A stretch of DNA of 64,000 bases from a virus (lineage: Duplodnaviria > Caudoviricetes). Position 1 is the first letter of the stretch, and the number at the start of each line of letters is the position of its first letter. A program made the translations under genes and the position numbers. The stretch lies in IMG/VR virus record IMGVR_UViG_3300033463_000012. One strand, written 5' to 3'. Shown here one piece after another: positions 2,524 to 60,108 of the stretch. A model generated the notes under the pieces. That model saw nothing but the letters and a program-made list of their open reading frames with translations, searched no databases and was not told the origin of the DNA.

Positions 2524-3624
2524 ATGAAACACGACAATGACATGTTGTGGCGATATTGCGTTCTTGCAGCTGAACGCATGAATGGGCATAGGTTGTCCGA
2601 GCACAAATTCAACTTCAAGTGCAATGTCTGCGGAGATGGCCACCACAAGAAACGGGGCTATCTCGTTTTTGACACATCCAGGGATTTGATTTACTACAAG
2701 TGTTTCAATGAAGGAGACTGCGCAGCTGCAGGAGACGGGAACACTTGGCACGCCTCAAGATGGCTGAAATTCACTGACAAAAACCTCTATTCCGCCTATC
2801 GTTCCGAACTGAAGGAAAGTCGGGTAAAAAGGATAGGTAAACTGAGGTTCAAGACAGAGAAAAGCGCCCAGAACTGTCCCACATCTCCAGGGAGCCACTC
2901 AGAGCCAGTTTCTGCAAAGGTAGCTATAACTACTAGGGTACCCCCGAAAGTGGCTCAAAACTCATCCTTGGAGCTGACGGACATAGAACGAGAATTCAGC
3001 TCTTTTCTGCCCATAAAGAAATGCCCGGACAATCTCAAAGAACCTGTAAAGAAATTCTGCCTAGGACGGATGCTCCCGAAAGAGAGGATCAAGGAATTTC
3101 GGGTAGCTGTGAACGGGAAGTATCGGAATCGCATAATCATCCCGACTTTTGACGAGAACCACAAGCTGATCTATTTTCAGGCGCGCGCATTGCTTGGACA
3201 AACCCCAAAATATCTCAACTCAGTGGCGCCAAGGGAAAACGTCATCTATGGTCTTGATCGAGTGGACAAGAGCAAGCCGGTCATTGTCCTGGAAGGTCCA
3301 ATCGATTCAATGTTCGTGGAAAACGGCGTGGCCACCATGGGTTGTTCCTATTCCAAGGAAGTGCAGAGCAAACTCGATCAAATGAATTGTCTCTATCTCA
3401 TGGACAATGACAGGGCTGGAAATTCAAAATCGCGTGAATTGCTGCAGACAGGGCATAAGGTGTTCCTGTGGACTAAATTTCTCAGAGGTAATTGCTTGGA
3501 CAAGAACCTGAAGGATTTGAACGAATACGTCGTCTCGCAGAAGGCACGGATTCCTCTTTCCTTTGATTTCCTGTCCAGCTATTTCTCGGATTCACAATTC
3601 AGCATGTCATATTTGACAAAGTGA
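2524..3624 (+). CDS. DNA primase (T4 gp61-like)
   Basis: Zn-binding CNVCGD...CFNEGDC, RIIIP, YFQAR, PKYLN, TOPRIM EGPIDSMF and DNDRAG motifs. Confidence 0.93.
   Translation: MKHDNDMLWRYCVLAAERMNGHRLSEHKFNFKCNVCGDGHHKKRGYLVFDTSRDLIYYKCFNEGDCAAAGDGNTWHASRWLKFTDKNLYSAYRSELKESRVKRIGKLRFKTEKSAQNCPTSPGSHSEPVSAKVAITTRVPPKVAQNSSLELTDIEREFSSFLPIKKCPDNLKEPVKKFCLGRMLPKERIKEFRVAVNGKYRNRIIIPTFDENHKLIYFQARALLGQTPKYLNSVAPRENVIYGLDRVDKSKPVIVLEGPIDSMFVENGVATMGCSYSKEVQSKLDQMNCLYLMDNDRAGNSKSRELLQTGHKVFLWTKFLRGNCLDKNLKDLNEYVVSQKARIPLSFDFLSSYFSDSQFSMSYLTK
2875..2983. repeat. ~109-bp palindromic element, copy 1 (in frame inside primase)
   Basis: Outer IR tgtcc..ctccaggga / tccttggag..ggaca, inner IR gagccagtttc / gaaagtggctc, core ggtagctataactactag. 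Confidence 0.85.
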
Positions 3625-3721
3625 GAAATTAAAGTGTCCGATTTCAAGCGAATCAAGAAAGTTCAGACTGATACCTACAACCGAAAGGGCCGCAACTCTT
3701 TCACAACAAAGGACTGGGAAG

Positions 3722-3928
3722 ATGAAGACATCTACGATGACGAAGACGCAACTGATTTCAGCTATCAAGAATCAGCTGACGATAGTTGGCAATACAATCA
3801 GTGAGGCGAATCTGGCCAAGGGTCAGAAAGGTTTCAAGGCAGCCAACAAGAAACAGTGGCAGATGGGATACCTTGCCGCGCTGAAGGACACTTTGGATTG
3901 GTTGGACAAGGAGTTCACTGAGGTCTGA
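3722..3928 (+). CDS. Hypothetical protein
   Basis: 68-aa ORF with phage-like codon usage. Confidence 0.6.
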   Translation: MKTSTMTKTQLISAIKNQLTIVGNTISEANLAKGQKGFKAANKKQWQMGYLAALKDTLDWLDKEFTEV

Positions 3929-4052
3929 CCTTGTGGGATTGGGCACATTCCCGCTTTTGGAAGGACAAGTTCCTTCTGCTTTTTGATCATCGACTTTTGA
4001 TGGTCAAATATCGAAAGTTCAGGAAGTGCATCATGTCAGAGACGGAGAACGT

Positions 4053-4382
4053 ATGAGCTGGCCTTTCCTAGCCGACTTCACTGACAAACAGGTCAAGTAT
4101 GTCTATGGACTGATCACAAGCATGCTGGACCATTACGGGTTGAATTTCCATTTCAATGACAATTGGAAGGACATCAAAATCGAATTCAAAGATTGTGTGA
4201 TGATGATCTATTTCCAGGACAAATGGATTGAATGGAAGGTATGGTCCGCGAATGGTCAACTTTCATATTACAAAGGAAGACCCGCCACATATTTTGAATA
4301 TGCAGACGCCTACAAAGGAATCCAGGAATTGGATTGGGTCATTTCGCATTTGAAGGATGGACCTAGATTCTTCAAGAGCTAA
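4053..4382 (+). CDS. Hypothetical protein
   Basis: ATG preceded by ggag; its stop TAA lies inside a CTAAATT motif. Confidence 0.6.
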   Translation: MSWPFLADFTDKQVKYVYGLITSMLDHYGLNFHFNDNWKDIKIEFKDCVMMIYFQDKWIEWKVWSANGQLSYYKGRPATYFEYADAYKGIQELDWVISHLKDGPRFFKS

Positions 4383-4385
4383 ATT
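4379..4385 (+). promoter_or_regulatory. Putative late promoter CTAAATT (first listed of about 20 copies)
   Basis: Same heptamer on + at 4379, 7619, 11152, 13039, 16768, 20726, 21869, 25568, 27796, 32031, 33099, 36638, 44104, 48068, 52999, 60667 and on - at 19946, 36615, 48053; most lie 20-50 nt upstream of a start codon. Confidence 0.8.
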
Positions 4386-4413
4386 AGACAAAAGTTTCAA
4401 ACGAGGAACAGAT

Positions 4414-4857
4414 ATGAACGATACAGAAGATTTGATGTACACCAAGGCGAAGATGGACAAGAGAAACCGTATTGACTGGATGAAGGAAGAAACACCCCAG
4501 CAGATGGCCGGCACATCCTGGATGGTGACCTTGATCTACAACATCGGGAAGCAGTTGACCCTGACTCCGGACAAGATTCGCGTGGCTGAATTGAATGTTC
4601 CAGTCGAAGATTGGATCACCACCTATGAAGATTGGGTGGCCGATATGATGGAGAAATACGGAACATCTGCAGTTGATTCAGGTGATGCACTCCAGACCAT
4701 TTACGAAGACCTCATGCGCCACTACGTTTTCGACGCAGTGATGAAGGCCTTCCCCGACGGTTTCGATTACAAGATCACCGAGGACATGAGTGACCTGGCC
4801 CTGGAAAAGGTCAAGAAGGTTTTGGGAACCTGGAAGGATCCAGCTCCCATTTGGTAG
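4414..4857 (+). CDS. Hypothetical late protein
   Basis: ATG with gagga SD, downstream of CTAAATT. Confidence 0.65.
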   Translation: MNDTEDLMYTKAKMDKRNRIDWMKEETPQQMAGTSWMVTLIYNIGKQLTLTPDKIRVAELNVPVEDWITTYEDWVADMMEKYGTSAVDSGDALQTIYEDLMRHYVFDAVMKAFPDGFDYKITEDMSDLALEKVKKVLGTWKDPAPIW

Positions 4858-4883
4858 AAATTGAACAAACAAGGAGAACGAAA

Positions 4884-5267
4884 GTGGAAAATCCCGAAAA
4901 CAAGAAAAAGAAGACAAGAGTGAGCAAAGTCACCAAGACTACAGTGACCAAGACGACTGAAGTCAAGGTCAAGGCGGAACGCAAGCCACGGACAAAGAAG
5001 GAGCCCAAGGTGGAAACCAAGTTGGAAGCCCCGATCAAGCCCGTGGACGAACACATTGATGATTTCAGTGCAAAGCTGACCGTCGGCATTCTGCTGGTCA
5101 TGCTCGTCGTGCTGATCGTTTGGTCAGTGATGAAGAAGGAAACCCCCAAGCCCATGACCATTGAACCTCAGGCGAACATGATTCTCAAAGACACTGTCGC
5201 CAAGGACACCATGGTCACCGTCCTGGATACGGGCAAGGTCGACACGATAGTCACTGCCAACAAATAA
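4884..5267 (+). CDS. Single-pass membrane protein with Lys/Thr-rich N-terminus
   Basis: GTG start after aggaga; TM segment LTVGILLVMLVVLIVWSVM. Confidence 0.65.
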   Translation: MENPENKKKKTRVSKVTKTTVTKTTEVKVKAERKPRTKKEPKVETKLEAPIKPVDEHIDDFSAKLTVGILLVMLVVLIVWSVMKKETPKPMTIEPQANMILKDTVAKDTMVTVLDTGKVDTIVTANK

Positions 5268-5288
5268 GGCAGTATCCAAAATGGAAAC

Positions 5289-5324
5289 AACCTGGCCCCT
5301 TCAACGGGGTCAGGTTATTTCTTT
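5289..5324. terminator. Intrinsic terminator between convergent genes
   Basis: aacctggcccc-ttcaac-ggggtcaggtt hairpin followed by a T-rich tract. Confidence 0.7.
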
Positions 5325-6007: not shown

Positions 6008-6192
6008 TTTTTCCTTGCCTTCTTTTCCAGCCAGTTTCCGAAAATATCGCACACGTCATCGAACCAATCCGCCATGTGGTCAGAGACGATGAAGGCGAAT
6101 CTTCCGGCGATGATTGCAAGAAAGATGAATACGGCGCACCCGACAAAAAGGATGCTGATCGTAAGTGCGAGACTGGTGATTTCACATTCCAT
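6004..6192 (-). CDS. Small membrane protein
   Basis: Long hydrophobic N-terminal segment; SD aggag. Confidence 0.6.
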   Translation of the reverse strand: MECEITSLALTISILFVGCAVFIFLAIIAGRFAFIVSDHMADWFDDVCDIFGNWLEKKARKK

Positions 6193-7546: not shown

Positions 7547-7573
7547 TTATAATATAATATCTTTTTGGCCAAA
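7547..7573 (-). promoter_or_regulatory. Putative early promoter TTTGGCC-x-AAAAG-x-TATTATATTATA
   Basis: Near-identical to the copies at 17847-17873 (+) and 60607-60633 (-). Confidence 0.7.
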
Positions 7574-7652
7574 GAGTATCGACTTTTTTGAAATTTTTTC
7601 TCGACCTGGCTAAAAGGGCTAAATTTGAAGAATATCAGCAGGAGACGATATA

Positions 7653-17801: not shown

Positions 17802-17830
17802 GGAGGGCTCGAAAGGGCCCTCCTTTTTTT
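17802..17830 (+). terminator. Intrinsic terminator
   Basis: ggagggctc-gaaa-gggccctcc followed by T7. Confidence 0.85.
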
Positions 17831-17846
17831 GAAAAAAGTTGTACAA

Positions 17847-17873
17847 TTTGGCCGAAAAGTTATTATATTATAC
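17847..17873 (+). promoter_or_regulatory. Putative early promoter
   Basis: tttggccgaaaagttattatattatac, identical to the reverse complement of 60607-60633. Confidence 0.7.
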
Positions 17874-17898
17874 CTAGAACCCAATCAGGAGGCATCCT

Positions 17899-18765: not shown

Positions 18766-19794
18766 CTAGGTGTTTTCTTCGAAGCAGTCCATGCAGACCT
18801 CTTCGGTTCCGTCGTCAGTTTCGATTTCCTTGCATTCTTCGTCAGAGAAAATCTTGGAGCCACAAAGGGCGCAGCAGCACTTGACCCGAGGACGGAATCC
18901 TTCAAGAACTGGCCGAGGACGAATTGATTCATTCAGGTTGTCGATGATGCTTTCAATTCTGTCCAAGGCGTATTTCCAACCACGATATTCATAGCTGGAT
19001 TTGTCAGAGGGTTGGTTTCTCAGCAATTCCTTGTAGAATGCGACAGGACGTCTGATTGCCTTTCCGGGGTCAGTGATTTTGTTTATCTGCTGGTTCAGAA
19101 GGTCGACATAATGATACCAGTCACGGGCTCTGCCGACTGCATCACTGGCTCTCATTTCGTCCTTAGGTTCGATATAGGTCTTGTTCACAATCTTCTGAAT
19201 GTGGTCGAACTTGCGTTCCTTTTCCTGTCTTTCGGCCCTTTCCTTGGCTTCGGCTTCCGCCTTCGCCTTGGCTTCCTGTTCACCCTTGACACGATTGTAA
19301 CGCTGGTCACGGGTTTCTTCAGGGTTCCAATTGCGGGTCATCTTTCTGCCCTTCAGATATTCATAAAGCCAATAGCAGTCAGCAACGGTCACTGCATAGT
19401 CCTTGGCGTTTCGGTCGAGATAGGGAACAACAGTAAGGTTCTGTCTGTTCCAATCTCCAAGGTCATCGTCGTTCATGTTGATCTTGACGACCTGCTTGAC
19501 CTTGTTGCCTAGCCATTCCTTGAACTTGTTTTCGTCGAATGTGTATTCGTAATTTTCATATTTCAACCATTCTTCCGGGATGTCATACCATTTCGACCCA
19601 TATCCCTTTTCACTAGATTTGATAGTGAACTCGATGCCCTGAGGAACTTTTTCATAATCGCAAAGGTTCCAATATTTTTCCATGCGAGGGCTGTTTTCCC
19701 AAATGCCGTCCGAGAGCTGACCGAACACCGAACTGATAATGTCATAATAGACGGGGTCCTTTAGCGGGAGGACGAACTTGTATTCTGTTGCCAT
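18766..19794 (-). CDS. Modular late protein (GQLSDG module, KITDP module, LNES linker, C-terminal Zn finger)
   Basis: GQLSDGIWEN; NKITDPGKAIRR; NLNESIRPRPVLEG; CALCG...CMDC. Confidence 0.75.
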   Translation of the reverse strand: MATEYKFVLPLKDPVYYDIISSVFGQLSDGIWENSPRMEKYWNLCDYEKVPQGIEFTIKSSEKGYGSKWYDIPEEWLKYENYEYTFDENKFKEWLGNKVKQVVKINMNDDDLGDWNRQNLTVVPYLDRNAKDYAVTVADCYWLYEYLKGRKMTRNWNPEETRDQRYNRVKGEQEAKAKAEAEAKERAERQEKERKFDHIQKIVNKTYIEPKDEMRASDAVGRARDWYHYVDLLNQQINKITDPGKAIRRPVAFYKELLRNQPSDKSSYEYRGWKYALDRIESIIDNLNESIRPRPVLEGFRPRVKCCCALCGSKIFSDEECKEIETDDGTEEVCMDCFEENT

Positions 19795-19820: not shown

Positions 19821-19929
19821 TGTCCCACAGCTACAGGGATGACTTCTGGTTCATTTTCCTCAAGGGTAAGTAAAAGATACTAGCCAGAGGTAAAACTGTC
19901 TCAGAATGGCTCCTAGAAGCTGATAGACA
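19821..19929. repeat. ~109-bp palindromic element, copy 2
   Basis: tgtcccacagct...agctgatagaca ends; core ggtaagtaaaagatactag. Confidence 0.85.
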
Positions 19930-20074
19930 AAATCCTTGGACATTGAATTTAGCCAATGATTTTACAATCAGTTGGCACATTAGCTATATTATATACGGGT
20001 GCAGATTGGCCCACCCATCATTAACCCGGGGTTGCCACACCGGGCCAGTCTGCACTCATTTAAAAGAGGACGAT

Positions 20075-20753: not shown

Positions 20754-21419
20754 ATGAAGTGCAAAAGGATTATTATGGAAAAGAAATATGAACTTACAGA
20801 TGAGACAATGGAATTTTATGATGCTGTTCCTCATATTCTTCATAGAATCAGAGCCCTCAAGGACTTCACCCTCAATGGCTACGCGGGTGATGTTAAGGCC
20901 GGGGATCTTGGTGGCTGGATTGAATCTGAGGATAATCTGAGTCAAGATGGCAAGTGTTGGGTAGGGGAAAATGCCAAAGTATATGGAGGAGCCAAGGTAT
21001 ACGAAGATGCCCTGGTTAGTAATATTGCAGTGGTTTCTGAAAATGCCAAGGTATACGGGAAGGCCAAGGTGTGCAGATGGTCCCAGTTGCACGGAAATGC
21101 GGATGTTTCGGGAAATGCTTTTGTGCATGGAAATGCTCATGTATATGAGAATGCCGAAGTATATGGACATGCCGATGTATACGATAACGCCCAAATATAT
21201 GGAAATGCTAGTGTATCTGAAAATGTCTATGTGTATGGAGATGCACAGGTGTTTGGAGATGCTAAGGTTTCCGGTGACATCTGGATTCATGAAGATGCAT
21301 ATGTACAAGGTAATACAAATTTGGATGATTCGTTTGGTAAGTTGGACATCCGCGGTAATGCAAACATTAAATCGGATAAAGATATTGACAAACCCGAAGA
21401 AAGAAGGACATTTCGTTAG
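20754..21419 (+). CDS. Hexapeptide-repeat (left-handed beta-helix) protein, paralog 1
   Basis: KKYELTDE..LHRIRALKDF..GDLGGWIESEDNLSQ head plus repeated (N/D)A.VYG. Confidence 0.85.
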   Translation: MKCKRIIMEKKYELTDETMEFYDAVPHILHRIRALKDFTLNGYAGDVKAGDLGGWIESEDNLSQDGKCWVGENAKVYGGAKVYEDALVSNIAVVSENAKVYGKAKVCRWSQLHGNADVSGNAFVHGNAHVYENAEVYGHADVYDNAQIYGNASVSENVYVYGDAQVFGDAKVSGDIWIHEDAYVQGNTNLDDSFGKLDIRGNANIKSDKDIDKPEERRTFR

Positions 21420-27303: not shown

Positions 27304-27669
27304 ATGAACGAAATGTTTGCAACTTTCAACTCTGCGTGGGCGGCAATCGGTGGCGTGGTCCTGTTGGTGATATGGTTCTACAGAATCAGAATAGACACCA
27401 ACGTGAACACTTCAAGGATAAACAGCTTGACTAACGAGATGAGGGATCACAAGACGTATGTCGACAACAAGCTGACAAACACTGAAAACTCAATAAGGGC
27501 CGAAATCTCCAAACTTCGTGAGGAGGTCCAGCTTCAGTTGAGGACTCATCAGGCCGAACAAAAGGAAAAGATGGAAACCTTGTCTGAACAGATTTCCCGT
27601 CTGACCGAAGCCGTGACCGACCTGAGAATCGAGATCAAGTCATTCAATCACCTCACGGAGGACAAATGA
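27304..27669 (+). CDS. N-terminal TM plus coiled-coil protein (possible holin-like)
   Basis: WAAIGGVVLLVIWFY followed by heptads. Confidence 0.5.
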   Translation: MNEMFATFNSAWAAIGGVVLLVIWFYRIRIDTNVNTSRINSLTNEMRDHKTYVDNKLTNTENSIRAEISKLREEVQLQLRTHQAEQKEKMETLSEQISRLTEAVTDLRIEIKSFNHLTEDK

Positions 27670-27814
27670 ACGATAGGAAATTCATCGAAATTGTGGATGA
27701 ATTGAAACGTTGTCTGATTGACGAGATTGAAGACCTGGTTCCAGATGAACTCGAAGGCAAAAAGATGATAATAGATATGGCACTGAAGCAGGTATCTAAA
27801 TTCTACGGCAACAA

Positions 27815-27924
27815 GCTATAGGAGGTCATAGGAGAGCCAAGGAGCCATTTTTCACTGAGGTAGCTATAACTTACTAACCTTAGGCAAAAGTGGCTCAGAA
27901 GTCATCCTAGACAGCCAGGGAGCA
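27815..27924. repeat. ~109-bp palindromic element, copy 3
   Basis: gagccatttt...aggtagctataacttacta...aaaagtggctc...tcctagacagccagggagc. Confidence 0.85.
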
Positions 27925-29692: not shown

Positions 29693-30625
29693 ATGATAGA
29701 CGAAAAGGAAATACCCGAAGAGCTGGTCAAGGCCGTGAATGATGCCCATAGACCTTGGCATTATACTGATAATATGAATTATACCAATGCTGATAAAAAA
29801 TGGGCAATTAAAGTCATCAAAGAAGCTATTCATACAATACACAGTTTGATGAACAAGGGGGTTGACCCTGCAGAAAAACAGACTGGACATAGCTCAAATC
29901 ACTATATAGAAATACTAGATTGGATGGGTCTTGATGCTGACTGGGAATCCTTTTTCGCTGAACTTTGTAATCAAACCTATTCTCAGAAGGAAATTTTTTA
30001 TCTGTATATTGATGGAAAAAAAGACCAGGTTTTTGCCAATTTCGATGATGCCAAAAATGAAGCAGATATCATATATTCGTATGGAAACTTTACAGATTCA
30101 GTTAAAGTGAAGGATGAAAAAGGCGAAGTGTTTTATGATCCTAGTGAGTATGATGAAGAAGATGAGTCATATGAACCTATTATGTATAATGTTTTCTTTG
30201 ATTCTGTTTCTGGAAAAGAATGGTATTATCTGCACACCTTCAGAACTCTGGAAGATGCAAAGGATTATGTATGTAAAGACACAGGCAATTACAAAATCAA
30301 AAATTCTTTTGGTGAACTTATTTTAGATACAGATGATATTGAAAAGTTACGTCAGGAACGTAGCAATATTTCCGAATCCACCAACATCTTTGAATCCTTC
30401 CTCGGAAACAGGCAGAAGGGTGGTTTCGACGCTGCAAAGGTGGTCAGAAACCTAAAGGACGGAAGATACGACAGCGAGAATGTCATAGCTGCCTGCGTGT
30501 CGGCCCTGGAAGAAAGACAGAAGTCGGCTCTTGCTCAGAAGTTGGTCAAGCAGTTGCAGTCCGACGGAATCCTGGCCAAGGTGTTCAAGCGCAGTGGGGA
30601 ATTCGGGACGAAGGAGCAACAATGA
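29693..30625 (+). CDS. Modular late protein (ISES/IFES linker)
   Basis: AT-rich middle and GC-richer C-terminal module after 'NISESTNIFES'. Confidence 0.7.
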   Translation: MIDEKEIPEELVKAVNDAHRPWHYTDNMNYTNADKKWAIKVIKEAIHTIHSLMNKGVDPAEKQTGHSSNHYIEILDWMGLDADWESFFAELCNQTYSQKEIFYLYIDGKKDQVFANFDDAKNEADIIYSYGNFTDSVKVKDEKGEVFYDPSEYDEEDESYEPIMYNVFFDSVSGKEWYYLHTFRTLEDAKDYVCKDTGNYKIKNSFGELILDTDDIEKLRQERSNISESTNIFESFLGNRQKGGFDAAKVVRNLKDGRYDSENVIAACVSALEERQKSALAQKLVKQLQSDGILAKVFKRSGEFGTKEQQ

Positions 30626-43101: not shown

Positions 43102-43118
43102 TAAATTAATGGATAAAT

Positions 43119-43227
43119 GGTCCCTGACTGCATAGGATGACTTCTGAGCCACTTTCGGGTGAGGTAAGTAAAAGATACTAGACATAGGTAAAACTGGCTC
43201 AGAACGCACCAGAAACAGTGAGGGAGA
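43119..43227. repeat. ~109-bp palindromic element, copy 4
   Basis: tccctgactg...ttctgagccacttt...ggtaagtaaaagatactag...aaactggctcagaa...cagtgaggga. Confidence 0.85.
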
Positions 43228-44137: not shown

Positions 44138-44395
44138 ATGATCAGACGCAGAAGACTTTACGAAGAAGACGACTATGTTAGAGGTAAAGAGTGGACCCAT
44201 GCTAATTTGAACTATAAAAGCGGTTATCATGATGCGCTGAAATTCGTTGTCAATGTCGCTGAAGATTACGATGATATTGATGGATTTCGTGTATGGATAA
44301 ATCATGCTATTACAAAAGCTAAAAAAGAACTGAGTGAAGCGGGTGAATCATGGGCAAAGATCAGAGGCCTTAACCAAGAGAAAACAGGAGTATAG
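44138..44395 (+). CDS. Small late protein with 'MIRRRRLYE' leader
   Basis: After CTAAATT; SD aagga. Confidence 0.65.
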   Translation: MIRRRRLYEEDDYVRGKEWTHANLNYKSGYHDALKFVVNVAEDYDDIDGFRVWINHAITKAKKELSEAGESWAKIRGLNQEKTGV

Positions 44396-44396
44396 A

Positions 44397-45386
44397 ATGA
44401 TCAGACACAGAAGAATGATGGAATCTAGAATAAGCGATAAGGCACAAGAAATAATAAATGCCAAGAAGAAACGTCAGGATAGGCGTTCCTCCAAAATGTC
44501 ATACGAAGAGACTCAAGAGGCCGAAAACAAACGTCGCATTGAGCGGATATTCATGATAAAGGTCAAGAAGCTGTACGGTCTTCTTCCTGAGATATTGAAA
44601 GATGTGGAAACTGTTTATCAGGTAACAGGAAAGGCCATAGATGAGGAAGCTGGTGACGAGACTTTTCCTGATATGTTTTTCGGTATCTCAGACAATGAGC
44701 CTTATGTTGAGGTTGAAGCCGACTTGGTAGCTAGGGTTTCCGGGGAAACAGGAAGAAAGCATTTGATTTTGCAAAGTAAATATGACGGTTATTCTCTAAA
44801 TATCGATATAAACGGTGGCAGAGTAATTTACTCTTATATTCTTAAATTCGCCAGGAGCCTAGAGGATGTTGATGAAAGCGAGAGCGACAAGGACGCCATA
44901 GAACATCTTTTCAAACAAATCTCTCGGTGTATTGAAATTGTAGAAGATGATGCTGATGAAGTGAGCAAGAAGCTGGAAGGAATCCTTGACGAATACGACC
45001 GTAAGGAAATTCGTGGAATGAAGGAATCCTACAGACGTCGTGGTCACATGCTTCGTGAAGGACTTCTCAGTCAAGCCAAAGAAGAAGCCGAAAAGAGAAA
45101 GAGCAATGGAAAAATCATTCAGGAAAGGGCAAAGGAATTCCTGAAAGTTTTGAAAGAACTCTATCTGCACGCCGGTTATCATTTTGATTGGGATGAAGCC
45201 GAATGGACATCAGACAATGATCTCAAAATTCCATACGACATCAATGACGAAAAGACCGAAAAATTGGTCAATGAACTTTGCAGATATGGATGGATTTCCA
45301 AATGGAACAAATACAAGATTTGGGTCAAAGCAAAAGAATTTGCGGATGATGACCGTTTTGAAACCCTAATGGGTTGGTTGTCCTAA
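44397..45386 (+). CDS. Modular late protein (leader MIRHRRMMES; 14-aa linker)
   Basis: Internal MKESYRRRGHMLRE at 45018-45059. Confidence 0.75.
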   Translation: MIRHRRMMESRISDKAQEIINAKKKRQDRRSSKMSYEETQEAENKRRIERIFMIKVKKLYGLLPEILKDVETVYQVTGKAIDEEAGDETFPDMFFGISDNEPYVEVEADLVARVSGETGRKHLILQSKYDGYSLNIDINGGRVIYSYILKFARSLEDVDESESDKDAIEHLFKQISRCIEIVEDDADEVSKKLEGILDEYDRKEIRGMKESYRRRGHMLREGLLSQAKEEAEKRKSNGKIIQERAKEFLKVLKELYLHAGYHFDWDEAEWTSDNDLKIPYDINDEKTEKLVNELCRYGWISKWNKYKIWVKAKEFADDDRFETLMGWLS

Positions 45387-45411
45387 TGAAGGTTATTGAT
45401 CAAAAGGAGTT

Positions 45412-46620
45412 ATGAACATGGATTCATTTTGGAGCACAGAAGCATATTTATATCGCGAAGAAGATGATTTCTATTGCTTCAATTGTCTGGGTGATGAAGC
45501 GTCACTTGACATATTCATCGACAAGGAAACATTGGATTCCAGTTATGCCTTGATCATTGGTGATGAATATGCTATCGGGGACAAAGACAATCATGTTTCC
45601 GAAGACGTGATTCTGACCAAAGGAAATGAATTACTGGAAAGCGTGATCGGGGAATATGCAACACTGACCAAAGATCAACTCATGGAGATGACATACAATG
45701 CATCAACCCAGGTCACTTCGGAATACAATGACCTAGGAACCGATACCAGAACAGGGCTTCCTTGGGGTCAAACCGAAGACATGAATGAATCCACTGAACC
45801 GGAAAAACTCGACGAAAGACTGGAAATAGATGACAATTTCAGAGTCATGTGGGGTGGACATTTGACCAACATCGCTGACACTCTGTATGCAATCTACAAG
45901 GGTGGAGACAACTTCAACAGACAAGAATTTCAAGACGGAATGGTAAGAAGCAGAAGTCTGAACAATGCCATGATGTATTTGAACATCTTTTCTGCTCTGC
46001 AACGCAAAGGTTGGCTGACAAAGGAACGTCAGGGTCGTCATTTCAAGTATCATCTTACACCCGAAGGAATGAAACAGGTTGATCGTGTTCTCGCCGCTTT
46101 GGGTGAAAAGAGAAATGACATCAAAACAGCAAAGCCAGAAACAAAGCCGGAAAGCAAACCCGAAACAAAACCAGTGTCCAACAAGATTTCCGTGATGCCT
46201 TTTGAACAGTGTTTCTTCGCCTCAATGGTTTTGGATGCCGAAGATTACAGTGGACCACGTGAATGCTCCTGGATCAGTCCCAGTAATTTGCGTGAAGTGC
46301 TTGAAACATATACAGATGAAGATGACAATCCTTTGAATGTAAATGAACTCAAGCGGCTATATGAAGAATATAAGGCAAAAATCCTCAATGGTGAATCCAA
46401 AAGCAATGCAAAACTTCATAAGGTTGGTTATGACTATGGGGAAATTTCCAGCAGATGCATTCCAGACATCACCGAATATGGAAAATCTTGGCCCGAATAT
46501 GACAGACGGCAGGCACGTGTTCAGCTAGAAACCACACTTTGGATGCTTGTTACAACTTCCAGAGACGATTGGAAATTCAATGACAATGAATGGGATAGTT
46601 GCCCTGTCAAGAAAAAGTAA
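45412..46620 (+). CDS. Modular late protein with a winged-helix module
   Basis: MNESTEPEKLDE linker; LQRKGWLTKERQGRHFKYHLT wHTH; (KPE[TS])x3 spacer. Confidence 0.75.
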   Translation: MNMDSFWSTEAYLYREEDDFYCFNCLGDEASLDIFIDKETLDSSYALIIGDEYAIGDKDNHVSEDVILTKGNELLESVIGEYATLTKDQLMEMTYNASTQVTSEYNDLGTDTRTGLPWGQTEDMNESTEPEKLDERLEIDDNFRVMWGGHLTNIADTLYAIYKGGDNFNRQEFQDGMVRSRSLNNAMMYLNIFSALQRKGWLTKERQGRHFKYHLTPEGMKQVDRVLAALGEKRNDIKTAKPETKPESKPETKPVSNKISVMPFEQCFFASMVLDAEDYSGPRECSWISPSNLREVLETYTDEDDNPLNVNELKRLYEEYKAKILNGESKSNAKLHKVGYDYGEISSRCIPDITEYGKSWPEYDRRQARVQLETTLWMLVTTSRDDWKFNDNEWDSCPVKKK

Positions 46621-46628
46621 GGAGAATA

Positions 46629-47264
46629 ATGAACATGAAGGAAAGTGTATTTGACAAAGGCATGCCAGAACACGATTATGTTTGGACAATCTTTGACTAT
46701 GATACTGGTGATTCAGAATACGAAGCGGACACCAGTTTCGAAACAGTTGAAGAAGCCAAAGCCGATGGTTTGGATTTCCTGAAAGGACTGACTGATGGAC
46801 ACTATGTGCTCAAGGTCTGGAATTTCTATGAAGATGAAGGCCCATTGGAAGATGGTGGTGTCCTTTGGATTGAAAGTGACCATGGCGAAATAAAAGATGA
46901 CATGGACGAATCTGTCGAAAGCCACGGTCAGATGCTTAATGAAGATGAATATCTCAGCAATCCTTTCAAGGTCGGGGACATTCTTGCAGGTTCATACAAC
47001 TACCGTGTCATAATTCCTCACTTCACCCAGGTCATTGCAGTCACACCGAAATCAGTGAAGTGCAGAGATTTGGTCGGTCAGGGAATGTCCGGCATGTTCG
47101 GTAACACCGCATACGCCGAAAAGGACGTATTCGACACCAGAGAACCGATTTGGACCGCTCGTGTCAAATACTACCGTGATGGTGATAGTCCACATGTCTA
47201 TCATGGACAGGTCTCGTACAGTCTATGGGACGGCAAGCCCATGCAATACGATTATATGGATTAG
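46629..47264 (+). CDS. Modular late protein (leader MNMKES; 14-aa linker)
   Basis: MDESVESHGQMLNE at 46902-46943, followed by an SH3-like FKVGDIL module. Confidence 0.75.
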   Translation: MNMKESVFDKGMPEHDYVWTIFDYDTGDSEYEADTSFETVEEAKADGLDFLKGLTDGHYVLKVWNFYEDEGPLEDGGVLWIESDHGEIKDDMDESVESHGQMLNEDEYLSNPFKVGDILAGSYNYRVIIPHFTQVIAVTPKSVKCRDLVGQGMSGMFGNTAYAEKDVFDTREPIWTARVKYYRDGDSPHVYHGQVSYSLWDGKPMQYDYMD

Positions 47265-47288
47265 CTGACAAAGAATGAACATAAGAAG

Positions 47289-47315
47289 AGGCCCCACGAA
47301 AATGGGGCCTATTTT
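47289..47315. terminator. Intrinsic terminator between convergent genes
   Basis: aggcccca-cgaaaa-tggggcct-atttt. Confidence 0.75.
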
Positions 47316-47339
47316 AATCAATAAATCAGAAGCATGTTT

Positions 47340-48026
47340 TTAATGATATTTGTCTTCCTTCAACATTTTTCCACGATAACGACGAGATTCCTTCATGTTC
47401 CTATGCATTTTGGCGAGTTTCTGTTTCTGTTCAGTCGAAAGAAGTTTCCAATAATTGTTTGGATTGGTGTAGCTCTTGACAGTTTTGTACAATTTGTCGA
47501 CAAGGTTTTTGTATTCATTCAAAAGGTAAATAGTTGGAACAGTAACAGCTTCAATAGTCGGAGTATCAAAATACTCTTCACGACAATCTTCATAGCAACA
47601 AACCAAAAAGTTATACAATTTATCTGGACTGCTAATACAATTTGAGTATTCCAAAGAAGTATCACCACCGGTTCTTGACCAATAAATAGTCAGTGGATAG
47701 TGTACATTAGGGTCATATTCTACATACCACCACAGGTCTGATGGACCAATTACTATAAATCCTTCATGAGTTATTCTGCAAATTTTGTATTCTTTCTCTG
47801 GTTTACTCAATTCTTCAATTAAATCATATTCATCCTGAGGATCTTTTTCAAAATTATCAAGACCATTGCACTTTATTGTCTTTTTATGTTCATCATAAAG
47901 TTCTTCCCAAATTTTATGAATTTTCCTACATTTGTCTTCAATGTAATCTGTAATTTCAGAACATTCCCAAGCTGCATCATGCAACTTCCGTTCTTCCTCT
48001 TCAGTGAATTCATATTCATCACGCAT
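47340..48026 (-). CDS. AT-rich late protein ending in the 14-aa linker
   Basis: Reverse CTAAATT at 48053; C-terminal MKESRRYRGKMLKE at 47355-47396. Confidence 0.75.
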   Translation of the reverse strand: MRDEYEFTEEEERKLHDAAWECSEITDYIEDKCRKIHKIWEELYDEHKKTIKCNGLDNFEKDPQDEYDLIEELSKPEKEYKICRITHEGFIVIGPSDLWWYVEYDPNVHYPLTIYWSRTGGDTSLEYSNCISSPDKLYNFLVCCYEDCREEYFDTPTIEAVTVPTIYLLNEYKNLVDKLYKTVKSYTNPNNYWKLLSTEQKQKLAKMHRNMKESRRYRGKMLKEDKYH

Positions 48027-53028: not shown

Positions 53029-53808
53029 ATGAGAAAGAAATATGAACTAACAGATGAAACAATGGAATGGAAAGGACATACCTTGCATCGGATTCGTGCT
53101 CTCAAGAATTTCAAATACACCGAAGAAGGTAATCTTGGTGGTTGGGTTGAATCAGAAGACAACTTGAGTCAAGAAGGCAATTGTTGGATATATAGCCATG
53201 CCAAGGTATATGACAATGCGGTAGTAATGGACAATGCTGATGTATCTGGTGATGCTCAAGTATATGGTAATGCAGTCATAAAAAAAGAAGCGAAAGTAAG
53301 TTATAATGCCAAGGTATATGGTAATGCCACGATTGAAGGAGATTCCTTAGTATTTGGAAATGCAACCATTTGCGACAATGCCAAATTACTGTGGCATGCT
53401 GAAGTGACAGATCATGCCATTATAGCCGATAATGCCAAGGTATCTGGTAATGCCAAGGTATATGACGATGCTGTAGTAAATGGATATGCCGAGATACACG
53501 ACAGTGCCGAAGTATATGGTAATGCTCATGTATCTGAAAAAGCATGGGTATATGGTGAAGCAAGAGTATATGATGATGCTCATATATACGGAAGTGCTCA
53601 GGTTTATGGAATTTCCAAAGTATATGAAGAAGCACAGGTATATGAAAATGCAAAGGTGTCAGGTGATATTTGGATCAATGGCAAAGCCGATGTTCACGGT
53701 GATGTTATTCTTGGGCCTGCTGTTGGTCAGTTAGATATTTGTGGAACTGCAAATATTGAATCGAATGATGATGTCAATATTCCCAGAGGTAGAAAAACAA
53801 TTCATTAG
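53029..53808 (+). CDS. Hexapeptide-repeat protein, paralog 3
   Basis: KKYELTDETME..LHRIRALK.F..GGWVESEDNLSQ; C-terminus similar to paralog 1. Confidence 0.85.
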   Translation: MRKKYELTDETMEWKGHTLHRIRALKNFKYTEEGNLGGWVESEDNLSQEGNCWIYSHAKVYDNAVVMDNADVSGDAQVYGNAVIKKEAKVSYNAKVYGNATIEGDSLVFGNATICDNAKLLWHAEVTDHAIIADNAKVSGNAKVYDDAVVNGYAEIHDSAEVYGNAHVSEKAWVYGEARVYDDAHIYGSAQVYGISKVYEEAQVYENAKVSGDIWINGKADVHGDVILGPAVGQLDICGTANIESNDDVNIPRGRKTIH

Positions 53809-54828: not shown

Positions 54829-54884
54829 GACCCTTCATCCAAATTTTTATTATATTATACTCAGGAAAACCACTCGGAGGTTCC

Positions 54885-55760
54885 ATGACTCTATTTCTTG
54901 ACTGGTCAAACTACATGTATCGGTGCCTGTTCGTCTCCCGAAATCAGGATCCTTTTGACGATGAGTTCAAACTTTGGCGCCATATCATTTTCCGCTGCCT
55001 CATGGATGAAATCAAGTCATTCAATCCCGACGAGGTGGTGATCGCGGGGGACGGCAGAAATCCTTGGAGAAAGGCGATTTATGCAGATTACAAGGCCGGC
55101 CGAAACAAGGGAAGGGAGGAATCCCCAGTTGATTTCGACAAATTCTTTCAGGTTGCAGAAGAGTTCTGGCTTGAATTGAAGGAATCTTTCCCCAACATCA
55201 AGTGGCTCAAAAAGGAAAGAATCGAAGCCGACGACATCGTGGGGGTTCTGGTGAAGAATCTGCATAAAGATTGCATGGCCATTACCACGGACAAGGACTA
55301 CATTCAGCTCCTCAAATACCCGGGCTTCAGACTGTTCAACCCGATCAAACGGGAAGATGTGAAATCCTTGAATCCCAAAATGGATTTGGATGTCAAGTGC
55401 ATCTGCGGAGACGGGTCGGACAACATCTCCGGAATCAAGCGCGGAATCGGTCCTAAACGTGCGGAGAAGTTGCTGACCGAAGGAAAGCTGGACGAATTTC
55501 TGAACAAGGACGAAGAAGCGAAAAATTCCTATGTTCGCAATCGTCAGCTGATCGACATGGACAACATTCCTCAGGACATTCAGCTGGAAATCCTGAACGA
55601 ATACAAGTCCTATCCAGTTCAGCGGTTCGACACGGAAAGGTTCAAGAAGTTCATTATGAAGAACAGCCCAAGCATGATCCTTGAAACATCCTCCCTCGCA
55701 GCCAGTCTTTCCAAGGTCGGCAGTGTTCCGATATCCAATATAGACAGTTTCATCCAGTAG
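54885..55760 (+). CDS. rnh: RNase H / 5'-3' exonuclease (T4 rnh-like)
   Basis: LFLD, WRK.IY.DYK..R, EADD, D.DY.QL, GD.SDNI.G..GIGPK.A, RN..LID. Confidence 0.92.
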   Translation: MTLFLDWSNYMYRCLFVSRNQDPFDDEFKLWRHIIFRCLMDEIKSFNPDEVVIAGDGRNPWRKAIYADYKAGRNKGREESPVDFDKFFQVAEEFWLELKESFPNIKWLKKERIEADDIVGVLVKNLHKDCMAITTDKDYIQLLKYPGFRLFNPIKREDVKSLNPKMDLDVKCICGDGSDNISGIKRGIGPKRAEKLLTEGKLDEFLNKDEEAKNSYVRNRQLIDMDNIPQDIQLEILNEYKSYPVQRFDTERFKKFIMKNSPSMILETSSLAASLSKVGSVPISNIDSFIQ

Positions 55761-55868
55761 GCTCCCTGGCTGTCTAGGAGCCACTCAGGGGCCATTTCTG
55801 ATGAGGTAGCTATAACTTACTAGCTCTCGAACAAATGAATCCTAGACCATCCTGGAAGCTGTAGGAGA
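55761..55868. repeat. ~109-bp palindromic element, copy 5
   Basis: gctccctggctgtctagga...ggccattt...aggtagctataacttactag...aaatg...tcctggaagctgtaggag. Confidence 0.8.
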
Positions 55869-57556: not shown

Positions 57557-57592
57557 AATAGTTATATTTGGCCTATAAGGAGAAAATCATAG

Positions 57593-58549: not shown

Positions 58550-59073
58550 CCAGTTATGAGGTCTTCAAGATAATTCTCAACTTCAGAGCCAAGCACTGTG
58601 GTTGTGGAATCAGACTTCCTATTTGCGACAAGTGGGAAAGGGAAAACAGAAACCCGAAGTCGAGCATAATCTTCATCTGCAATCAATTGTCAAACTTGTC
58701 TCAAACCAAGGAAGACATTGAATTTTTCGTGGGTTTGGCTCATGTGAAGTTCGGTGATCCTTGGGAAAATATGAAAAAATTTCTTGAAAAAAACACTCCA
58801 CTCTCCCTCAAGAAAGAGCTATATTTAAGAACAGAACAGGACAACAAGTCCTTGGACAAACTTCTGAAAACCTCCAATATGTCCCTGTATGACCTCTTCA
58901 AATCTCCTCCGGGTGGAAACTCGATAGCGACCGCCCTGCTGAGGAATTTGTTGATAAACCCGTGGTGCTACGTCAATCACCTCAACGTAGTGGACGGACT
59001 CAAACTCAAAAAGGATGAGGTGAAAACATTGCGCATAGTAAAGGAGATAACACATGCCAAGAAACAACATTGA
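58546..59073 (+). CDS. Probable helicase loader (gp59-like)
   Basis: MTSYEVFK....K.H N-terminus; immediately upstream of gp32 as in T4. Confidence 0.5.
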   Translation: MTSYEVFKIILNFRAKHCGCGIRLPICDKWERENRNPKSSIIFICNQLSNLSQTKEDIEFFVGLAHVKFGDPWENMKKFLEKNTPLSLKKELYLRTEQDNKSLDKLLKTSNMSLYDLFKSPPGGNSIATALLRNLLINPWCYVNHLNVVDGLKLKKDEVKTLRIVKEITHAKKQH

Positions 59074-59923
59074 TTTTTCGTCCCTCAAAGCCCAGATTGA
59101 CCAGATGTCGCATCGTGGTCCGAAGCGTCAGCCGTCAGACCCTCGCTTCTACGATCTCACTTTCCCTGAAGGCGAGACTCGTGCCACCGCGATCATCCGT
59201 TTCCTTCCTTCCAAGATTGGCGATCCTAACTGCTTCGTCAACGTGAAGTCGCACTGGTTCAAGTATTCGACCCCGGAAGGAACCCGCAACTTCTATGAAC
59301 CCTGCCCTCGCACCATCGGTCATAAGTGCCCCATTTGTGACTACGCCTTCGCCCACAAGGACGACAAGGGGAAGATGGCCGGCGACGCCTTCATCACCAA
59401 CATCATGGTGATCAAGGATCCCAACAAGCCCGAGAATGAAGGCAAGGTTTTCCTGTTCCGTTTCAAGAGGGACGTCTGGAAGAAGATTCAGCAGGTGATT
59501 TCTCCTGAAGACGGCATTGATGAACCCGCGAACATCTTTGACTTGGAAAGCGCTCCCAACCTCAAGTTGGTTTGCACCAAGCGTTCCGTTCCTGGTTTCG
59601 TCCGCCCTGTCGCTCGCTACGATGAATCCGCTTGGACTTCTCCCACCCCGATCATCATCAAGGGCGAGAAGATGTCCGAGGAGTTCTTGGACAGCATCAA
59701 CGACAAGGTCTATTCCCTGGAAGAATTCATCGCTCCTGACAAGTTCAAGAGCTATGAAGAATTGCAGGGCAAGTTCGACCTCGCCGTGAACACCCTCTCG
59801 GAAGTTCCCAATGAAGCCGAAGCGCCTTCTGCAGAAATTCCGGAATCCTCCCCCAAGACTGACTCCAACAAGTTCGTGAAGGGTCAGGACACCGTCGGGG
59901 AAGATTTCTTTGACAACCTTTAG
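59054..59923 (+). CDS. Single-stranded DNA-binding protein (gp32)
   Basis: D.RF, AIIRFLP, H.F, CP.TIG..CPIC, NI.VIKDP..PENEGKVFLF, acidic C-terminus DFFDNL. Confidence 0.95.
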   Translation: MPRNNIDFSSLKAQIDQMSHRGPKRQPSDPRFYDLTFPEGETRATAIIRFLPSKIGDPNCFVNVKSHWFKYSTPEGTRNFYEPCPRTIGHKCPICDYAFAHKDDKGKMAGDAFITNIMVIKDPNKPENEGKVFLFRFKRDVWKKIQQVISPEDGIDEPANIFDLESAPNLKLVCTKRSVPGFVRPVARYDESAWTSPTPIIIKGEKMSEEFLDSINDKVYSLEEFIAPDKFKSYEELQGKFDLAVNTLSEVPNEAEAPSAEIPESSPKTDSNKFVKGQDTVGEDFFDNL

Positions 59924-59946
59924 TGTGTAAATCCTCTCACACCGTC

Positions 59947-59977
59947 GGGGGCTCCTAACTGAGCCCCCTTTTCTTTT
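59947..59977 (+). terminator. Intrinsic terminator
   Basis: gggggctc-ctaact-gagccccc-ttttctttt. Confidence 0.85.
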
Positions 59978-59999
59978 GTCTCCATTATTCAAAAGAAAG

Positions 60000-60108
60000 G
60001 CTCCCTGACTGCACAGGAAAGTCAAGGAGCCACTTTCTGATGATGCTAGTATAAACTACTAGGCCTATGTACAAATGGCCTAGGACTCATCCTGGTCAGT
60101 GTCAGAGA
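60000..60108. repeat. ~109-bp palindromic element, copy 6 (overlaps the 3' end of the minus-strand gene)
   Basis: gctccctgactgcacagga...gagccacttt...ctagtataaactactag...aaatggcc...tcctggtcagt. Confidence 0.8.

Follow-up and report, generated by a model that had tools for sequence, protein, structure and literature searches.

Background

Rickettsia RPEs are dispersed palindromic repeats of about 100-150 bp which can lie in frame within genes, where they are translated as an extra peptide. The Neisseria Correia elements (CREE/NEMIS) and the pneumococcal RUP (107 bp) are imperfect palindromes of about 105-155 bp, with combinable arm types and without a transposase of their own. Their terminal inverted repeats are well conserved, their target duplication is TA, and beside genes they donate promoters, terminators or processing sites. 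These three groups, by analogy, appear closest in kind to the elements described here. Baculovirus hrs, which function as enhancers and origins, are built of about 70-bp units repeated in tandem and contain 30-bp palindromes. Integron attC sites carry the R''/R' boxes (RYYYAAC ... GTTRRRY) at the base of a hairpin and are served by the integron integrase.

Related repeats have been reported from viruses. The PeSLs of T4-like phages are repeated intergenic motifs that end in a ribosome-binding site, are associated with variable gene content and are thought to recombine with one another (Arbiol 2010; Comeau 2014, PMC4122927); each consists of a short stem-loop, a sigma-70 early promoter (-35/-10), a ribosome-binding site and a start codon (PMC4122927). 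Viral MITEs (vMITEs) are found in only about 0.01% of viral sequences and are usually linked to host copies (Nadal-Molero et al. 2024, PMC11602168).

The repeat family and its architecture

The window, that is, the whole stretch of 64,000 nucleotides analysed here, comes from an uncultured T4-like myovirus of the bovine gut. A preliminary description had reported six dispersed palindromic copies in it, and all six were recovered at the same coordinates by alignment and by a covariance model on both strands of the window:

2875..2983, plus strand: c1, in frame inside the primase (gp61-like) ORF 2524-3624; covariance model 106 bits
19821..19929, plus strand: c2, core B, in the leader of the minus-strand gene 18766-19794 (start 19794); 105 bits
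27815..27924, plus strand: c3, core A, between a small ORF (27666-27823) and a gene starting at 27928; 112 bits
43119..43227, plus strand: c4, core B, between a 348-aa gene (ends 43101) and gp13 (ATG 43241); 112 bits
55761..55868, plus strand: c5, core A, in the gap between a 5'-3' exonuclease gene and a 103-aa early gene; 100 bits
60000..60108, plus strand: c6, variant core, between the convergent gp32 (ends 59923) and a minus-strand 165-aa gene; 111 bits

The first model, built from the six copies and run with filters off, returned the same six only, with 99.6-112.4 bits (E 1e-25 to 1e-29) against 12.7 bits for the next match, so the formal check proposed with the preliminary description found the window loci significantly similar. 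A second model, from 10 copies, again returned the six (89-112 bits over the two models), and nhmmer agrees with both on the copy set. The six loci can be aligned over about 110 nt with a mean column identity of 67-71%. They recur every 4-17 kb, have no ORF of their own, and each is a single unit, not a tandem array.

The motifs described earlier are all present: the outer TCCC..CTG..AGGA arm with its complement, the inner GAGCCA(N)TTT / AAA(N)TGGCTC boxes, and the core, of which the alignment contains the variants GGTAGCTATAAC(T)TACTAG and GGTAAGTAAAAGATACTAG. Two of the finer claims need qualification. The proposed resemblance of core B to the reverse complement of core A is marginal, with 12 of 15 matches in the inverted sense versus 10 of 15 in the direct one, as counted from the sequences. 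The symmetry ascribed to all six copies holds overall but not for the left outer arm of c3 (27815-27824), which is unrelated to its counterparts in the other copies. The end of the small upstream ORF has overwritten it, and the c3 element proper therefore starts near 27825.

Conservation is highest in the 19-nt core and the inner GAGCCA-N-TTT / AAA-N-TGGCTC boxes, and across 10 copies the symmetric inner positions (these boxes together with GGA and TCC) and the core again come first. Six copies, drawn from two genomes of about 75% DNA identity, have exactly the same 19-nt core. The outer arms are the least conserved part and belong to two or three unrelated types, the invariant positions being internal; the element ends read TGTCC..GGACA or GCTCCC..GGGAGC. 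The right arm of c3 is the exact complement of the left arm of c5, and the arms are only about 60% complementary.

Neighbouring features

The contexts of the copies are mixed and include coding sequence, late-gene leaders on either strand, a cistron gap and gaps between convergent terminators. Three copies, c3, c4 and (on the minus strand) c2, start 8-16 nt after a late-promoter motif, which may point to a function. CTAAATT itself occurs 20 times versus 7.75 expected, in most cases 20-40 nt ahead of a late-gene start. The following landmarks are used below:

27796..27802, plus strand: late-promoter-like CTAAATT, 12 nt upstream of c3
59947..59978, plus strand: gp32 intrinsic terminator, an 8-bp GC stem plus TTTTCTTTTG (terminator scan), just upstream of c6
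59979..59989, strandless: empty site, 11 nt between the T-run landmarks TTTTCTTTTG (59969) and CAAAAGAAAGG (59990)

Copy c2 sits between a minus-strand late-promoter motif and the gene start at 19794, with CTAAATT on the minus strand at 19946-19952 and a sigma-70-like plus-strand promoter (19961-19990) beyond it; because it lies in the leader of a minus-strand gene, it is antisense to the leader transcript. The right end of c3, GGGAGC, is 6 nt before the downstream ATG, and c4 begins 8 nt after a GTAAATT variant of the late promoter at 43104-43110. The entire spacer between the exonuclease stop (55758-55760) and the early-gene ATG (55876) is made up by c5, whose right end, AGGAGA, is the ribosome-binding site of the 103-aa gene and is paired with CTCCCT at the left end. 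At the c5 core, Logan contigs of the source sample are interrupted. The right arm of c6 encodes the last ~6 codons and the stop of the minus-strand gene 60080-60577, and tblastn homology of the 165-aa protein ends at residue 159; on the minus strand c6 presents a hairpin and then a T-run, with a terminator-like call at 60020-60001. Orientation is non-random. All 11 copies seen in plus-strand gene blocks are plus-oriented, and the sole minus-block copy found, in the main relative (capsid protein 93% identical, DNA about 75%), is minus-oriented, which hints at a transcription- or replication-linked constraint.

RNA hairpins or DNA sites

When folded as RNA, five of the six copies are far more stable than shuffles, with z values of -2.2 to -5.2 (c5, -0.9); as DNA, the fold is similar on either strand. 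Such strong predicted folds might belong to cis-acting mRNA hairpins, serving as 5' stabilisers of late transcripts, in RNase III-type cistron processing as in T7, or in translational coupling by hiding a ribosome-binding site. The late-promoter motif CTAAATT precedes c3, c4 and c2 (minus) by 8-16 nt, which would place the 5' ends of late transcripts at the base of the hairpin. This reading also accords with the pairing of a GGAG-type right end with a CTCCC left end in c5 and partly in c4, with the abutment of c5 on the upstream stop codon, and with the minus orientation of the copy in the relative's minus-strand gene block. However, the stems have no excess of G·U over A·C: G·T and A·C mismatches number 18 vs 19 on the common structure and 24 vs 32 on each copy's own arms. 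Paired cells amount to 73.5% vs 70.3% in shuffles, covariation is weak (0.174 vs 0.145 shuffled, with 46 of 500 shuffles reaching the observed value), and the arms are imperfectly complementary. No Rfam family is matched by the element. These results speak against a structured RNA or RNase III site, covariation being barely above shuffles. The positions of the copies also speak against hairpins. While c3 and c4 are sense to the late transcript, c2 is antisense; the core type differs between same-site copies; one copy is inside coding sequence; one copy of the relative is flanked by two convergent terminators, a location at which transcripts should be scarce; and c3 has lost the left arm with which its ribosome-binding site could have paired. 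We consider mRNA hairpins unlikely.

The test of covariation against conservation proposed earlier thus came out for DNA conservation and against RNA covariation. Weak covariation, the absence of a wobble bias and the conserved core and boxes together indicate that selection seemingly acts on the DNA sequence, not on the RNA fold, and suggest that some protein may recognise the centre of the element. This keeps alive the rival view that the copies are DNA sites for a dimeric phage or host protein, i.e., enhancers, origins, topoisomerase or nucleoid sites in the manner of baculovirus hrs, or entry points for late transcription. The inner boxes and core are the most conserved parts and base pairing is poorly kept, the dispersed copies share one orientation, three of them adjoin late promoters, and c2 and c4 have kept their sites despite about 25% DNA divergence. 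Against this, individual copies are dispensable: the relative lacks c3 and c5, and at the gp32 site the copies are not co-positioned. In addition, one copy lies in a protein-coding linker, where the right-hand box of the element has degenerated in the lineage of the relative, the units are single, no candidate binding protein was found, and within about 10 kb on each side of the capsid gene no copy was found in relatives of 82% and 70% capsid identity that share the core genes. A DNA-site explanation has, in our judgement, a small probability.

Insertion in the primase gene

The copy c1 is translated at primase residues about 118-153, which fall in the linker joining the Zn finger to the catalytic core, and the primase ORF runs uninterrupted through it. 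It adds about 27-36 residues to the linker. In the alignment of homologues, 26-31 extra residues are found only in P0001 and P0123 and are absent from P0124 and all more distant homologues (11 others). In the DNA alignment at this locus L014 is occupied, L015 lacks about 80 nt, and L015-L017 are all without the insertion. The core of c1 has a private 1-nt deletion (ACT ACT AGG vs ACT TAC TAG) by which an in-frame TAG is removed. Judged from these alignments, c1 is evidently a derived in-frame insertion in an essential gene. As with RPEs, a palindromic repeat is here translated in frame in a permissive segment of a conserved protein.

Site occupancy and exchange between copies

Comparison of orthologous loci, suggested by the preliminary description as a search for empty sites, did reveal them, at c3 and, for primase, in L015-L017 and the 11 homologues. 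Four of seven sites differ between the window phage and the relative, in both directions. At the c3 site of the relative the stop TAG, GGAGA and ATG are directly consecutive, and CCAAATT (in L008) is read at the position of CTAAATT 27796..27802. At the c5 site the relative has no element and has unrelated genes of 42 and 109 aa, vs 103 and 116 aa in the window. Downstream of gp32 each phage has a copy, the positions being about 20 nt apart: the copy of the relative (114 nt) lies between the T-run landmarks, where the window has 11 nt, and c6 is located past the second landmark, at a place occupied by a terminator hairpin in the relative. Among close relatives, single sites have evidently acquired or lost a copy, and downstream of gp32 the two lineages have to all appearance undergone separate insertions, some tens of nucleotides from each other.

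Other sites are more stable, c1, c2 and c4 persisting across substantial divergence. The relative has an orthologous copy with core A at the c2 site (L071 5770-5888) and another at the c4 site (L008 18201-18319 = L072 8979-9097), the latter with different arms and only 55% identical to c4 in spite of conserved flanks. The junction repeats are inconsistent (AGAAC at c1, TAG at c5, CTCCCTG at c6), the genomes being too diverged for exact boundaries, and a target-site duplication was definable at none of the junctions examined.

Copies within the relative's lineage are 69-77% identical, with 87-90% in the left arms (L014 being assigned to this lineage by inference), whereas same-site copies of the two phages are 52-72% identical. 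A copy is thus closer to others in its own genome than to its same-site counterpart in the other phage, a pattern that points to gene conversion or turnover. The identical core B is shared by c2 and c4 in the window, vs core A at both sites in the relative. Exchange between copies would explain why arms and cores are mosaic and why same-site copies have different core types. In all likelihood, copies within a genome exchange sequence, i.e., undergo concerted evolution.

Exchange between copies is also compatible with portable homology modules for cassette shuffling, a palindromic counterpart of the PeSLs, in which case the elements would be recombination hot spots and not transposons. In T4-like genomes, PeSLs recur between genes and adjoin indels (PMC4122927), and c5 and c6 border segments that differ between the window and the relative. 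However, the large difference after gp13 (about 44.3-48.0 kb vs one 670-aa gene in the relative) has no element at its downstream border, and c1, c2 and c4 lie between conserved genes. Furthermore, the elements contain no sigma-70 promoter, and the window has a separate PeSL-like early-promoter repeat (I2/I3/I18). We regard this explanation as improbable. Identity with PeSLs as such was rejected, the only promoter-like site in the elements being one weak minus-strand match at the left edge of c3.

Distribution and search for a mobiliser

The preliminary description noted no transposase or recombinase, and this holds for the 30 window ORFs (Pfam) as well as for the Pfam tables of the same 182.5-kb genome and of the relative. 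A tyrosine recombinase was not found in the window and the element ends are without GTTRRRY; integron attC sites were rejected on both grounds. TnpB genes of relatives sit in loci without the element, and no copy was seen in the TnpB-bearing primase relative. The element has no match among deposited phages and no matching paper in the published literature. Pattern scans of IMG/VR, JGI metagenomes and GTDB genomes gave no confirmed copy; the genome scan covered 185,579 species genomes with one exact pattern, a narrow test. The family appears to be restricted to a sub-clade of uncultured rumen T4-like phages.

Discussion

We interpret the elements, with moderate confidence, as selfish MITE-like phage-borne non-coding imperfect palindromes of ~110 bp, partly co-opted. 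Among the possibilities raised in the preliminary description, the MITE/REP-like one is favoured by the occupied and empty sites, the primase insertion, the adjacent insertions at gp32 and the homogenisation within genomes. A protein-bound site is retained as a rival, and a replication origin, packaging or segregation site finds no support. The elements are short, non-coding, multi-copy (six per 64 kb) and without a transposase of their own, and they have occupied and empty alleles, as classical MITEs do, but conserved terminal inverted repeats at the very ends are absent. The conserved centre, the lack of a definable target duplication and of a transposase in the window, the orientation bias, the three copies close to late promoters and the persistence of c1, c2 and c4 also count against a MITE-like element.

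Under the MITE-like interpretation, homogenisation would result from T4-type homologous recombination and double-strand-break repair, probably helped by hairpin breakage, with other copies as repair templates. Spread to new sites might depend on some enzyme or on microhomology-mediated recombination; several junctions fall at TAGGAG / CTCCCTG, sequences to which the element's own ends are similar. Selection would then retain only harmless or useful insertions. The surviving copies are at gene ends and in short leaders, and copies appear to donate ribosome-binding sites (c3, c5), stop codons (c6), leaders of late genes and a protein linker (c1).

It is conceivable, but rather doubtful, that the system is phage-autonomous, one phage protein recognising the core and GAGCCA boxes both to copy the element and to put it to use during infection by the phage. 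The element could then act, depending on its orientation, immediately behind late promoters, as a 5'-terminal leader or as an entry or pause site of the late-transcription and replication machinery, or it could be a programmed recombination hot spot that swaps neighbouring gene cassettes. To our knowledge, no such combination of copying and function in a palindrome has been described for T4-type phages.

A MITE-like family in a lytic-type T4-like phage is unusual because transposable elements, above all MITEs, are very rare in phages (PMC11602168) and host copies were not detected. It would mean that a streamlined phage genome tolerates and re-uses junk DNA, the primase copy being translated and others providing ribosome-binding sites, stops and possibly a terminator. 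The family also offers a tractable case of concerted evolution through phage recombination and marks hot spots of genome change. In practical terms, the repeats break short-read assemblies of these phages. Many copies may have a cost, since long palindromes can trigger host defences; in one report, viral palindromic DNA is a trigger of the DdmABC defence (PMC11707656).

Comparison with known systems

The elements resemble baculovirus hrs as dispersed imperfect palindromes in a large dsDNA virus genome. The comparison, made in the preliminary description, fails on architecture, as the phage loci are single units instead of tandem arrays, and they are dispensable between close relatives. They differ from PeSLs as 110-bp palindromes located in late and core-gene regions, one of them inside a gene. 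With vMITEs they share the form of short non-autonomous inverted-repeat elements inside phage genomes, but this family has at least 6 copies per genome and no confirmed copy in the species genomes covered by the exact-pattern scan.

Like the Correia elements and RUP, the phage element is a gene-adjacent imperfect palindrome of similar size, with mixed arm types and without a transposase. In contrast to them, its termini are the least conserved part and its centre the most, no duplication is definable, and the hosts of Correia and RUP are bacterial chromosomes. RPEs likewise reside in a bacterial chromosome and have no sequence similarity to the phage element, whereas the phage family is found in a lytic-type T4-like genome, is mostly intergenic and shows ongoing exchange. 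The likeness to RPEs lies in what the copies contribute to proteins: c1 lengthens the linker of the primase, and another gene takes its final codons and stop from c6.

Six copies of a conserved palindrome

Six imperfect palindromes of about 110 bp are dispersed through the window:

2875-2983 (+), copy c1
19821-19929 (+), copy c2
27815-27924 (+), copy c3
43119-43227 (+), copy c4
55761-55868 (+), copy c5
60000-60108 (+), copy c6

The six loci are mutually alignable over about 110 nt. A covariance model built from the six copies and run with filters off on both strands of the window returns exactly these loci, at 99.6-112.4 bits, the next-best score being at most 12.7 bits. The same six were recovered by a second covariance model (10 copies) and by an nhmmer profile. 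The reverse strands of the copies score 31-56 bits with the first model, as expected since the elements are palindromes. The preliminary description, which had listed six copies of about 109 bp with outer and inner inverted motifs, is thus confirmed in number, position and motif content, except for the left arm of c3. The first ~10 nt of c3 show no homology to the remaining left arms, and its right arm is the exact complement of the c5 left arm; c3 is therefore a copy that has lost its 5′ end to the tail of a small ORF lying upstream. The suggestion that core B, one of the two variants of the central 19-nt core, resembles the reverse complement of the other, core A, holds only marginally: the match is slightly better inverted than direct.

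No already described family was found in Rfam (gathering scan of the window) or among deposited phages (blastn with c3). A full-text literature search for the core sequences matched only an unrelated C. elegans primer. Wider pattern scans produced candidates that were rejected. Seven IMG/VR loci carry the inner-box pattern, four of them without a model match at E <= 1; the strongest candidate, L003, amounts to one isolated 32-bit palindrome on a contig of 146 kb, and L006 (19.7 bits) and L001 (14.8 bits) are weak. None of the 53 loci from a core-pattern scan of JGI metagenome contigs was confirmed by the model, and all 10 matches in GTDB species genomes are chance matches, including one in an Acidaminococcaceae MAG from buffalo rumen, which inspection showed to be unrelated.

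DNA sequence or RNA fold

Selection acting on a single strand as RNA should leave G·U well above A·C. No such excess was found in the element stems: there are 18 G·T and 19 A·C mismatches on the common 26-pair structure, and 24 and 32, respectively, when each copy's own arms are aligned. Pairing on the common structure occupies 73.5% of cells versus 70.3% after shuffling, the covariation score (0.174 versus 0.145 in shuffles) was reached by 46 of 500 shuffles, and only about 60% of arm positions are complementary. The invariant positions are the core and the symmetric boxes GGA, GAGCCA-N-TTT, AAA-N-TGGCTC and TCC, and the DNA folds of both strands are alike. Given the weak covariation, the lack of wobble bias, the invariant boxes and core, the alike strands and the lack of an Rfam family, we read the pattern as that of a decaying palindrome whose DNA sequence, and not an RNA fold, is conserved. 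This is the outcome of the contrast between covariation and conservation that had been proposed as a check.

The phage and its relatives

The window comes from a contig of 182,555 bp, and its sequence is contained in bovine gut metagenome runs. Its genes are densely packed, most of them on the plus strand, and include the following:

T4-type portal, prohead protease, gp23 major capsid protein, baseplate wedge, gp13, gp15, gp32
gp44-like clamp loader, RNase H-like 5′-3′ exonuclease, gp61-like primase

Among isolated phages, the best relatives of the capsid protein in the capsid-protein search are cyanophages, at only about 33% identity, and a peptide-pattern search with it in IMG/VR gave no match. 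Deposited phages contain no DNA match for the 8-kb structural region, and a tRNA scan found no tRNA genes in the window. A large protein with PF09603 (Fibrobacter succinogenes major paralogous domain), encoded just past the window end at about 69-70 kb in window coordinates and at L087 3186-5276, is possibly a hint, but only a hint, at a rumen Fibrobacter host. Three paralogous genes (20754-21419, 30622-32034 and 53029-53808) have an N-terminal segment in common and 18-bp repeats; the encoded hexapeptide repeats are beta-solenoid/bactofilin-like, and they are the main contributor to the direct-repeat output.

The capsid-protein search also yielded a graded series of relatives, all uncultured. 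Lineage R (capsid 93% identical, other proteins 65-87%, DNA about 75%) was sampled over about 75 kb and the lineages with 82% and 70% capsid identity in pieces, and primase-bearing contigs were added. Among the lineages sampled, only the window's lineage, R and the primase-bearing contig L014 carry the element; none was found in the regions sampled of the 82% relative, the 70% relative and the lineage of three other primase-bearing contigs (L015-L017). The L014 primase is 79% identical to that of the window, and the left arm of the L014 copy is 90% identical to R copies; L014 is therefore probably R or close to R. Clustered at 90% identity, eight flanking proteins are all singletons and so yield no near-identical strains for exact element junctions. 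In the 70% relative, an intein that contains a LAGLIDADG domain splits the gene for anaerobic ribonucleotide reductase NrdD (L009 16566-20102), and nearby lies a gene for a TnsA-like endonuclease.

Occupancy of orthologous sites

Comparison of orthologous loci, which had been suggested for finding empty sites, showed that four of seven sites differ between the window and R, in both directions.

Table. Element sites in the window and its relatives (site; window; relatives)
Primase linker (c1); occupied; L014 occupied, L015-L017 and 11 more distant homologues without insertion
c2; occupied, core B; R occupied at the same position, core A
c3; occupied; R empty, small ORF stop TAG directly into GGAGA, then next ATG
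c4; occupied, core B; R occupied, core A, flanks alignable, elements only 55% identical
c5; occupied; R without element, two downstream genes unrelated
gp32 downstream site a, between T-runs; 11 nt only; R 114-nt copy
gp32 downstream site b, beyond second T-run; c6; R minus gene's terminator hairpin
Extra R copy, L089 13507-13618 (+), exactly filling the space between two convergent genes, from stop codon to stop codon
Extra R copy, L089 17294-17382 (-), inside a block of minus-strand early genes

The primase insertion is derived, since the L015-L017 contigs and the more distant homologues lack it. Downstream of gp32, both genomes have the gp32 terminator T-run and an inverted T-run, CAAAAGAAAGG, in common; the R copy lies between these landmarks and c6 beyond CAAAAGAAAGG. 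Insertion or replacement has thus happened twice and separately, at places about 20 nt apart. In the copies seen (11 plus, 1 minus), orientation matches that of the gene block around them. A tRNA-Leu(CAA) gene (L089 17149-17233, minus strand), preceded by an early promoter, lies immediately downstream of the minus-strand R copy. A large replacement separates the two genomes between gp13 and gp15, where four genes in the window (44334-48026; 350, 402 and 221 aa, and 228 aa on the minus strand) correspond to one 670-aa gene in R (L072 10001-12013); no element lies at its downstream (gp15) border.

Exchange between copies

Within R's lineage, with L014 counted in it, identity between copies is 69-77%, rising to 87-90% for the left arms of those in the primase, at c2 and at the gp32 site, versus 52-72% for same-site copies in the window and R. 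Moreover, c2 and c4 have an identical core B in the window, and R has core A at both sites. Gene conversion or replacement thus homogenises the copies of a lineage. This accounts for the seeming interchangeability of the arms, with the left-arm variant of one copy being the reverse complement of the right-arm variant of another. A flip-flop inversion of the element's interior was also considered, but alignments in the direct and the reverse-complement orientation score too similarly to favour either.

Within the c5 core (window 55796-55824), the Logan contigs from the probable source sample break off and resume, and the loose ends there carry left arms of other copies; short-read assemblies of this phage are therefore broken up by the repeat family. 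These contigs show breaks and loose ends at the repeated core and are uninformative on inversion or excision.

Genomic context

The motif CTAAATT occurs 20 times in the window versus 7.75 expected, nearly always 20-40 nt upstream of late-gene starts on the matching strand. Examples of CTAAATT(A/G) among the 20 are:

Plus strand: 7619, 13039, 25568, 33099, 36638, 52999, 60667
Minus strand: 19946, 36615, 48053

The motif is probably the form that the T4 late promoter TATAAATA takes in this clade. Starting 16 nt (c2, minus strand), 12 nt (c3) and 8 nt (c4) after this motif, three copies occupy late-gene leaders, c2 being antisense to its transcript. The c3 promoter and the promoter-less, element-less site of R are one synonymous base apart. 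Copy c5 takes up the space from the exonuclease gene to a downstream early gene, and its AGGAGA end, which pairs with its CTCCCT end, is the ribosome-binding site of that early gene. Copy c6 comes after the gp32 terminator, and it encodes the final codons and the stop codon of the gene that converges on it. Copy c1 is translated, a private 1-nt deletion having changed ACT TAC TAG to ACT ACT AGG and thereby removed the stop codon. No sigma-70-type promoter was found inside the elements. Contexts as mixed as these are to be expected if selection has filtered the insertions and some have been co-opted. Given that orientation follows the gene block, that three copies adjoin late promoters and that some sites are old, the element may have a function or insert by a strand-biased mechanism.

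Distinct from the palindromic elements is a repeated early-promoter-like module of about 58 nt (TTGTAC.. N.. TATTATATTATAC, with a conserved GGCCGAAAAG spacer), often directly downstream of a terminator hairpin. It looks like the counterpart, in this phage, of PeSL cassettes. Its sites are:

7548-7593 (-)
17824-17881 (+)
54830-54860 (+)
60599-60656 (-)

Mobility and classification

As the preliminary description had noted for transposases and recombinases, a domain search of 30 ORFs of the window found no transposase, recombinase or nuclease domain; nor do the precomputed Pfam tables list one for this genome and R across the stretch equivalent to 3-80 kb. A link to TnpB/IS605 was considered and rejected: TnpB occurs in the relatives' loci L015 and L014, the window has no TnpB, and L015-L017 have no element. 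The L015 gene is a full-length TnpB (IS605 OrfB) at 3710-4942 (-), near the primase region, and L014 1602-2342 encodes a 246-aa protein in which a homologue of window 4026-4346 is joined to the TnpB zinc-ribbon domain.

No target duplication is definable at the junctions. Several junctions lie within TAGGAG or CTCCCTG, sequences similar to the element's own ends, which would be consistent with new sites arising via microhomology-guided recombination. The earlier proposal of a selfish MITE/REP-like element fits the behaviour of the family, with its occupied and empty sites and exchange between copies, but not its conservation, which is higher in the centre than at the ends, the opposite of a classical MITE. 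We therefore file the family as MITE/RPE/Correia-like in behaviour only, outside any described family.
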